DNA of 62,197 bases from an uncultured Bdellovibrionales bacterium. Its GTDB lineage: Bacteria; Bdellovibrionota_C; UBA2361; CAZKXU01. The notes under the pieces were generated by a model, which worked only from the letters and a program-made list of their open reading frames with translations, was not told the DNA's origin and searched no databases. The stretch spans positions 1 through 62,197 of the forward strand of contig CAZKXU010000004.1 in assembly GCA_964556665.1 (NCBI GenBank), given 5' to 3'. The translations under genes and the position numbers were made by a program. Below, piece after piece: positions 24,447 to 24,568 of this stretch (positions are counted from its first letter, which is position 1; every line of letters starts with the position of its first letter).

Positions 24447-24483
24447 AAGAAAAATGGCACTCAGCCCAAACGCACTGAGTGCC
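24447..24483 (-). terminator. Intrinsic terminator upstream of lpxD
   Basis: 9-bp stem GGCACTCAG/CTGAGTGCC followed on the minus strand by ATTTTTCTT. Confidence 0.7.
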
Positions 24484-24553
24484 CCATAGGTCTACCCTAT
24501 CCAGGCCACAAGGGAAGCTAAGTCAAAGGGAGGGAAGGGCCCAGCTAGGATAT
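24449..24553 (-). ncRNA. Candidate CU-rich small RNA
   Basis: Extended -10 upstream, three predicted hairpins, two CUUCCCU motifs, intrinsic terminator; no ORF. Confidence 0.5.
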
Positions 24554-24559
24554 AACAGT

Positions 24560-24568
24560 ATTATATCA
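24560..24568 (-). promoter_or_regulatory. Extended -10 promoter element
   Basis: Minus strand TGATATAAT = TGn-TATAAT consensus. Confidence 0.55.

Follow-up and report, generated by a model that had tools for sequence, protein, structure and literature searches.

A non-coding stretch directly upstream of lpxD, on the minus strand at positions 24447-24568 of the window (the whole 62,197-nucleotide stretch of DNA analyzed here, contig CAZKXU010000004.1 of an uncultured Bdellovibrionales bacterium), raises the question of whether it encodes a small RNA of its own, and whether such an RNA would act on other transcripts or on the neighboring lipid A gene. The region is bounded by lpxD and by a divergent orphan gene of 535 aa. 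A sequence-only reading had proposed two roles for it, that of a trans-acting sRNA pairing with ribosome-binding sites through a CU-rich loop, and that of a terminating leader controlling lpxD.

Architecture of the element in the window

Analysis of the minus strand confirmed a perfect extended -10 element, TGATATAAT (24568-24560), which would serve as a promoter and is followed, as had been reported, by a non-coding segment of ~105 nt extending from ~24553 to ~24450. The 5' end of the RNA is predicted near 24553, and a covariance-model match together with the fold delineates a predicted small RNA of ~104 nt (24450-24553, minus strand). The covariance model matched this copy at 24444-24565 with 86.9 bits (E 2.4e-21) and found no second copy elsewhere in the window. 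Folding from the predicted start gave a main hairpin of 14 pairs with one mismatch (24552-24538 x 24507-24493), consisting of the 5' arm UAUCCUAGCUGGGCC (24538-24552) and the 3' arm GGCCUGGAUAGGGUA (24493-24507). This helix is present in the minimum free energy (MFE) fold and is backed by covariation across the family. The apical loop, CUUCCCUCCCUUUGACUUAGCUUCCCUUGU (24508-24537), comprises 30 nt that are unpaired in the folds and holds two CUUCCCU motifs, in agreement with the imperfect 5' stem and loop of the sequence-only reading. The intrinsic terminator identified by the terminator scan (24450-24483, minus strand) contains a hairpin at 24483-24456 with 10 pairs, 6 of them GC, followed by ATTTTT, that is, an A and five U residues (24454-24450); the 9-bp terminator noted earlier is thus present and slightly longer than stated. 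An AUAGG/CCUAU hairpin, which had been placed between the stem and the terminator, can form, but only in competition with the lower half of that stem. It was rejected as a family feature, since relatives show no counterpart and the segment in question makes up the lower 3' strand of the main hairpin.

Read from 5' to 3', the minus strand carries a REP doublet, a -35-like sequence, the -10 element, the RNA, the terminator, an AT-rich spacer and the start of lpxD. Comparison of promoter regions suggested that the -35-like sequence, TTGAGG (TTATTGAGG, 24598-24603, minus strand), is a remnant. It has kept the family-typical distance of ~68 nt to the loop motif and lies 32 nt from the -10 element of the window, so its pairing with that -10 is probably not in use. 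The window copy is a short variant of the family, with a hairpin of about half the usual length and a new extended -10 element 15 nt further downstream. Its fold reached a z score of -1.75 against dinucleotide shuffles and, over a slightly longer stretch, of -3.05 against mononucleotide shuffles; taken by itself, the window copy shows only a moderate folding advantage over shuffled sequences, and the evidence that the element exceeds chance is supplied by its homologues. The REP-type inverted doublet (24716-24641) is located directly 5' of the RNA promoter region and has at least seven copies in the window.

Homologues and range of the family

We retrieved the contigs encoding the closest LpxD proteins without reference to the RNA. 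The element was found upstream of lpxD in nine of the ten assessable relatives of this set (L081, L083, L085, L086, L090, L173, L174, L175 and L176), the L083 element being identical in L082 and L084, and was missing before lpxD in L087; L088 and L089 begin inside lpxD and therefore stand outside these ten. We also scanned the JGI metagenome collection with the loop pattern TCCCTCCC-N3-7-CTWAGCTTCCC and obtained 81 loci (L091-L171), 23 of which showed the full architecture, the remainder being coding or low-complexity sequence with no relation to the family. With a covariance model constructed from five sequences, full-length copies were detected at 29 other loci with scores of 41-134 bits (E 1e-8 to 1e-34), as were two copies cut by contig ends, with 51 and 24 bits. 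The RNA was absent from 44 distant lpxD loci searched with the same model, which were drawn from an LpxD search returning relatives of 30-38% identity. LpxD identity between carriers ranges from 35 to 78% with a median of 43%, indicating that the family spans deep divergence.

The nearest LpxD proteins to that of the window are only ~50% identical to it, and the named ones among them come from metagenome-assembled genomes (MAGs) labelled SAR324 and Bdellovibrionota. ClpB of the window shares 75-78% identity with many MAGs of deltaproteobacterial grade and gives no finer placement. The carriers represent an uncultured freshwater lineage, which NCBI labels put near Bdellovibrionota/SAR324, and the window itself is a complete contig of 62 kb obtained from a freshwater metagenome. 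In one carrier, L086, a second and shorter loop-like motif, CCCTCCCCTTGGCTTCCC, with GC-rich complementary flanks lies at positions 17-34, upstream of tatC and at the very edge of the contig. This motif, truncated there and showing no terminator, may represent a divergent paralogue.

Shared structure and covariation

Comparison of the members revealed four parts common to all of them: a promoter with a TTGAC -35, a long hairpin, a C-rich loop and a terminator. The RNA measures ~105 nt in the window and 125-145 nt in relatives. The hairpin begins at the predicted 5' end and contains 15-30 pairs, with arm sequences that are unrelated between clades and a pairing that is kept. It carries an unpaired, C-rich loop of 26-30 nt with the consensus AAUCCCUCCCCAUGUACUUAGCUUCCC, in which two motifs are arranged as UCCCUCCCC-N7-10-AGCUUCCC. 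A linker of 15-30 nt follows, often ending in ACUGGGG, and leads to a terminator of 12 pairs with its U-run. In the window, the two C-rich blocks of the loop are UCCCUCCC (24535-24528, minus strand) and AGCUUCCC (24519-24512, minus strand). No family member lacks either block, and this holds also for the members that were reached by way of LpxD alone; for the pattern-derived loci this invariance is partly imposed by the search pattern, so unbiased support for the loop is provided by the nine LpxD-derived loci together with the positions that the pattern left free, of which CCAUGUACUU is identical in 12 of 19 members. The repeated CUUCCCU, which had been taken as the functional motif, turned out to be specific to the window, the motifs of the family being UCCCUCCCC and AGCUUCCC.

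In the model-based alignment, 88.9% of the cells at paired positions can pair, compared with 66.4% in column shuffles, and none of 500 shuffles reached the observed value; the proportion fell to 32-44% when the partners were slid. Double-sided changes were found in 29 of the 32 pairs, which answers the suggestion of a homologue search with covariation: the element is conserved in relatives. In the terminator helix, 98.7% of the cells are paired, and double-sided compensatory changes occur in 9 of its 12 pairs. Since a model-based alignment is fitted to its model, each of 24 members was also folded alone. These single-sequence folds gave a median z score of -4.3, with the loop fully unpaired in the median case, and the MFE folds of all 24 members showed the same hairpin and terminator. 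MAFFT followed by RNAalifold on the 24 sequences recovered the terminator only, because the variable arms were misaligned, and it is for this reason that the model-based alignment was needed. On comparative sequence evidence, the element represents a conserved, structured small RNA family, and the homologues support the earlier view of a small RNA with a promoter and a terminator that is linked to lpxD.

Three other candidate features were considered and rejected. The changes seen in a candidate pseudoknot between loop and linker (CCCCA/UGGGG) conflict, and L133 and L090 lack it, so it was set aside as not conserved. A small sense ORF in the loop (ATG TAC TTA...) is missing from the window and from L083. 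An antisense small ORF (GGGAAG-N8-ATG) is not conserved, and the hairpin arms covary as RNA.

Promoters of the RNA and of lpxD

Analysis of the upstream regions revealed that relatives carry a conserved -35 box, TTATTGAC, where the window has TTGAGG. The family promoter consists of (G)TTTTATTGAC(G/A/C), a spacer of 17-18 nt and a moderate to weak -10, is located ~37 nt before the loop and is accompanied by a T-rich upstream tract. These signals point to a sigma-70-type promoter that belongs to the RNA itself. At the other end, the predicted RNA is closed by an intrinsic terminator with a U-run, both in the window and across the family.

In the window, lpxD, which encodes UDP-3-O-acylglucosamine N-acyltransferase and was assigned from Pfam matches and homologues, occupies 23317-24399 on the minus strand, with an ATG at 24396 and a TTG at 24399 as start candidates. 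The spacer between the terminator and lpxD comprises 50 nt, is AT-rich and contains TACAAT (24437-24432), 35 nt before the ATG. A consensus promoter scan combined this hexamer into a candidate promoter of lpxD, GTGCCA-17 nt-TACAAT (24432-24460, minus strand). In the window and in L104/L149, the 3' arm of the terminator coincides with the -35 of the lpxD promoter candidate. Upon comparing the lpxD start regions, we found in 8 of 25 loci, belonging to five clades (L096, L105, L147, L139, L144, L104, L149 and L176), a TANNNT hexamer whose end falls exactly 6 nt upstream of the ATG, against a background of 0.018 per position; these loci have no Shine-Dalgarno (SD) sequence there. The lpxD mRNA thus looks leaderless in five clades. 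Other clades possess TATAGT or TATACT boxes 30-35 nt upstream of lpxD, and the gene appears to be equipped with a promoter of its own downstream of the terminator. In most orthologues, no SD sequence was found before lpxD, so translation of a read-through transcript would be poor. The distance from the U-run to the lpxD ATG is only ~20 nt in three clades (L104, L108, L149, L155). Most relatives also contain a C/T-rich, G-poor stretch between the terminator and the lpxD promoter (L081 3917-3975, L085 3914-3975, L083 3899-3950; also L096, L137, L160, L174 and L175), in place of which the window is AT-rich. Such a stretch might serve read-through transcripts as a Rho-loading site, or it might form part of the promoter of lpxD.

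The gene lpxD lies directly downstream of the RNA and in the same orientation in every locus that extends far enough, as judged by tblastn, with the exception of L090, in which a 125-aa gene with its own terminator is inserted between the two. The upstream neighbor varies, being tatC at -0.9 kb, tatC with another gene, an epimerase gene or, in the window, the divergent orphan. Usually tatC is found 0.9 or 2 kb upstream and an SBP-vWA gene after lpxD. The order tatC - RNA - lpxD - SBP/vWA lipoprotein - (small gene) - type III pantothenate kinase (convergent) is maintained throughout the clade (window 21699-24399, L083, L086, L090, L173 and L175), and the window has lost the tatC linkage.

Presence in metatranscriptomes

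We searched RNA runs for the sequence of the window itself, and none contains it. Several freshwater and river metatranscriptomes hold the RNA region of L149 relatives, in the form of unstranded assembler contigs for which DNA carry-over is possible. In X8, a 118-nt contig with a word depth of 15.7 covers the 5' arm, the loop and the 3' arm, and no lpxD contig is present. In X9, a 168-nt contig consists of a 129-nt insert between both Illumina adapters, and the insert spans the region from the middle of the 5' arm to 9 nt beyond the U-run. In X5, a 324-nt contig extends from the 5' arm across the terminator and 190 nt into lpxD. X6, X7 and X10 contain lpxD coding sequence only, at a depth of 2-2.5. 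The RNA region is therefore present in RNA libraries of relatives, sometimes without lpxD, and some molecules cross the terminator, as far as unstranded contigs with possible DNA carry-over can tell. An adapter is joined directly to the RNA-library contigs at L149 163 / L144 13448 (X5) and at L149 156-264 (X9). These junctions mark reproducible fragment ends, located 11 and 20 nt ahead of the loop within the 5' arm, which could be processing sites or library artefacts.

Complementarity of the loop

The loop had been read as an anti-Shine-Dalgarno element that pairs with ribosome-binding sites, and this part of the proposal was not supported. An SD-like motif (GGAG/GAGG/AGGA/AAGG at -20 to -4) precedes only 11 of the 42 long ORFs of the window. 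The host seems to make little use of SD sequences, which removes the most obvious class of targets for the loop. Against the lpxD start regions, the duplex energies of the loop were worse than those of random windows from the same loci (median rank 0.74). Comparison with the starts of the downstream SBP-vWA genes revealed no consistent complementary site, and the matches to the 42 gene starts in the window, the best of which was a transposase, were within background. Exact words complementary to the loop occurred nowhere consistently across all loci, and 23% of shuffled loops matched Escherichia coli 16S/23S/5S rRNA, used as a proxy, as well as the real one. The target prediction recommended for the loop thus yielded no complementarity above background in the sequences examined. 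Given how long the conserved loop is, a protein or another conserved partner stays under consideration.

Possible modes of action

The two roles proposed at the outset, apart from ribosome-binding-site pairing, are still the main candidates, and the evidence leans toward the sRNA. We consider an independent trans-acting sRNA gene, packed tightly against the lpxD promoter, the leading explanation and give it roughly an even chance. It is favored over attenuation because lpxD appears to have its own promoter, its mRNA has a leaderless look, a gene intervenes in L090 and no antiterminator is visible. Transcribed from its own sigma-70-type promoter as far as a strong intrinsic terminator, the RNA would fold into a single long hairpin of high stability that keeps the C-rich loop of 26-30 nt single-stranded, followed by the linker, the terminator and the U tail. 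We infer that the RNA acts mainly in trans and that the exposed loop pairs with G-rich stretches of other RNAs, its putative targets, in the manner of RsaE/RoxS-type C-rich loops. The terminator and the U-tail would give stability and possibly allow chaperone binding. The promoter of lpxD would start at or just past the terminator and would often give rise to a leaderless mRNA. Transcription probably continues into lpxD to some extent, which makes a secondary cis effect on lpxD transcription possible. Several observations speak against a trans-acting sRNA: the loop complementarity was at background in every test made, linkage in the same orientation to one gene over deep divergence is more typical of cis-regulatory RNAs, the ~25 conserved nucleotides of the loop exceed a usual seed, and the X5 contig reads into lpxD while the X9 insert ends past the U-run.

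The first alternative is a cis-acting leader, or attenuator, of lpxD, in which a ligand on the loop (a protein, a small molecule or another RNA) decides between termination and read-through and thereby tunes lipid A synthesis, the short RNA being the terminated by-product. The element stands directly 5' of lpxD in one orientation throughout, although its upstream neighbor varies; the gap from the U-run to the ATG shrinks to ~20 nt; the X5 contig continues past the terminator into lpxD, and the X9 insert extends beyond the U-run; and the long conserved loop resembles a ligand or protein site more than a seed. However, the folds of 24 members contain no antiterminator and no conserved pairing that competes with the terminator, and the arms are unrelated between clades while the 5' arm of the terminator is semi-conserved. 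A linker of 15-30 nt stands between the terminator and the hairpin, which is very stable, and the candidate loop-linker pseudoknot is not conserved. The -10 of lpxD is placed for a leaderless mRNA in five clades, a read-through transcript lacking an SD sequence would translate poorly, and in L090 the RNA and lpxD are separated by a further gene and a second terminator. We therefore regard attenuation as conceivable but doubtful. A protein- or machine-binding RNA, such as a housekeeping-type sponge or decoy whose loop is the recognition site of, for example, a KH-, S1-type or poly(C)-binding factor, would account for a loop kept over ~25 nt that include pattern-free positions (CCAUGUACUU in 12 of 19), for a strong conserved promoter with its T-rich upstream tract and for loop searches that gave no complementary partner. 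Positive evidence for any protein partner is absent, and each locus has one copy with one binding module, in contrast to the many repeats of sponges such as CsrB; we consider this reading unlikely.

That the locus holds no functional RNA, and combines a chance promoter-like hexamer with the terminator of a former gene beside lpxD, would fit the z score of only -1.75 for the window copy and the lack of an RNA run for the organism of the window. It is very hard to reconcile with compensatory changes, a promoter and a terminator that are conserved down to 35% LpxD identity, or with the presence of the RNA region in metatranscriptomes of relatives, and we judge it highly improbable. A more speculative and rather improbable reading is a deeply conserved regulator dedicated to lipid A synthesis for the outer membrane, distinct from an ordinary seed-pairing sRNA. 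A conserved cellular partner, either a protein or a stable RNA, would recognize its invariant C-rich loop of 25 nt, and its transcription and termination right beside the leaderless lpxD promoter would directly determine lpxD output. If true, it would constitute a combined cis/trans RNA control of lipopolysaccharide (LPS) biogenesis without a described counterpart. The family adds a well-supported RNA to a lineage without a cultured model, for which hardly any regulatory RNAs have been described, and its strict link to the essential lipid A gene lpxD offers a testable handle on how envelope synthesis might be coupled to RNA regulation. The alignment and model could seed an Rfam entry and permit genome-wide comparative target prediction.

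Comparison with known regulatory RNAs

The element had been put forward as an undescribed RNA, and catalogues and literature bear this out. A search of the whole window against the families of Rfam 15, among them RsaE, cuckoo, Yfr1/2 and the known leaders and riboswitches, gave no match at the gathering score; at E<10, the region 24300-24850 returned only noise on the neighboring REP hairpin (MIR7725), and eight homologous loci at E<5 returned noise only. Full-text searches of the literature found no paper describing the RNA. The family is uncatalogued in Rfam, and in kind it is a terminator-ended sRNA with a C-rich loop.

The unpaired C-rich motifs of RsaE/RoxS base-pair with G-rich sequences that lie at ribosome-binding sites or close to them (PMC6158497, PMC5419742). 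The lpxD-linked RNA resembles RsaE/RoxS (RF01820) and other Firmicutes sRNAs with UCCC motifs in being short, in having its own promoter and an intrinsic terminator, and in exposing at least two unpaired C-rich loop motifs. Unlike them, it carries both C-rich blocks in one very large loop on a hairpin of 15-30 bp, its gene is locked to lpxD and its host uses few SD sequences; it belongs to a different phylum and shows no sequence or model similarity.

The CcsR or 'cuckoo' RNAs of Alphaproteobacteria present a CCUCCUCCC loop motif on tandem repeated hairpins downstream of a DUF1127 gene. The lpxD-linked RNA likewise exposes a C/U-rich, anti-SD-like loop motif on a hairpin and ends at a terminator, whereas it has a single hairpin, lies upstream of lpxD and has no Rfam match. 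In Helicobacter RepG, a C/U-rich loop pairs with a G-repeat, and this loop is that of the terminator itself. The presumed interaction site of the lpxD-linked RNA is also a C/U-rich loop that would meet a G-rich target RNA, but it is not the terminator loop, and the sequence and host lineage are unrelated to those of RepG. The Listeria SreA/SreB riboswitch products and the Sinorhizobium rnTrpL attenuator RNA are terminated leaders that double as sRNAs, in which a switch between terminator and antiterminator is combined with a defined ligand or leader peptide. Similar to these, the lpxD-linked RNA is short and terminates directly 5' of a biosynthetic gene, and a combined action in cis and in trans is conceivable; in contrast to these, it has no visible terminator/antiterminator switch, and lpxD apparently has its own promoter. 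By analogy, the nearest functional counterparts of the family would be C-rich-loop sRNAs such as RsaE/RoxS, and it is a member of none of these groups.
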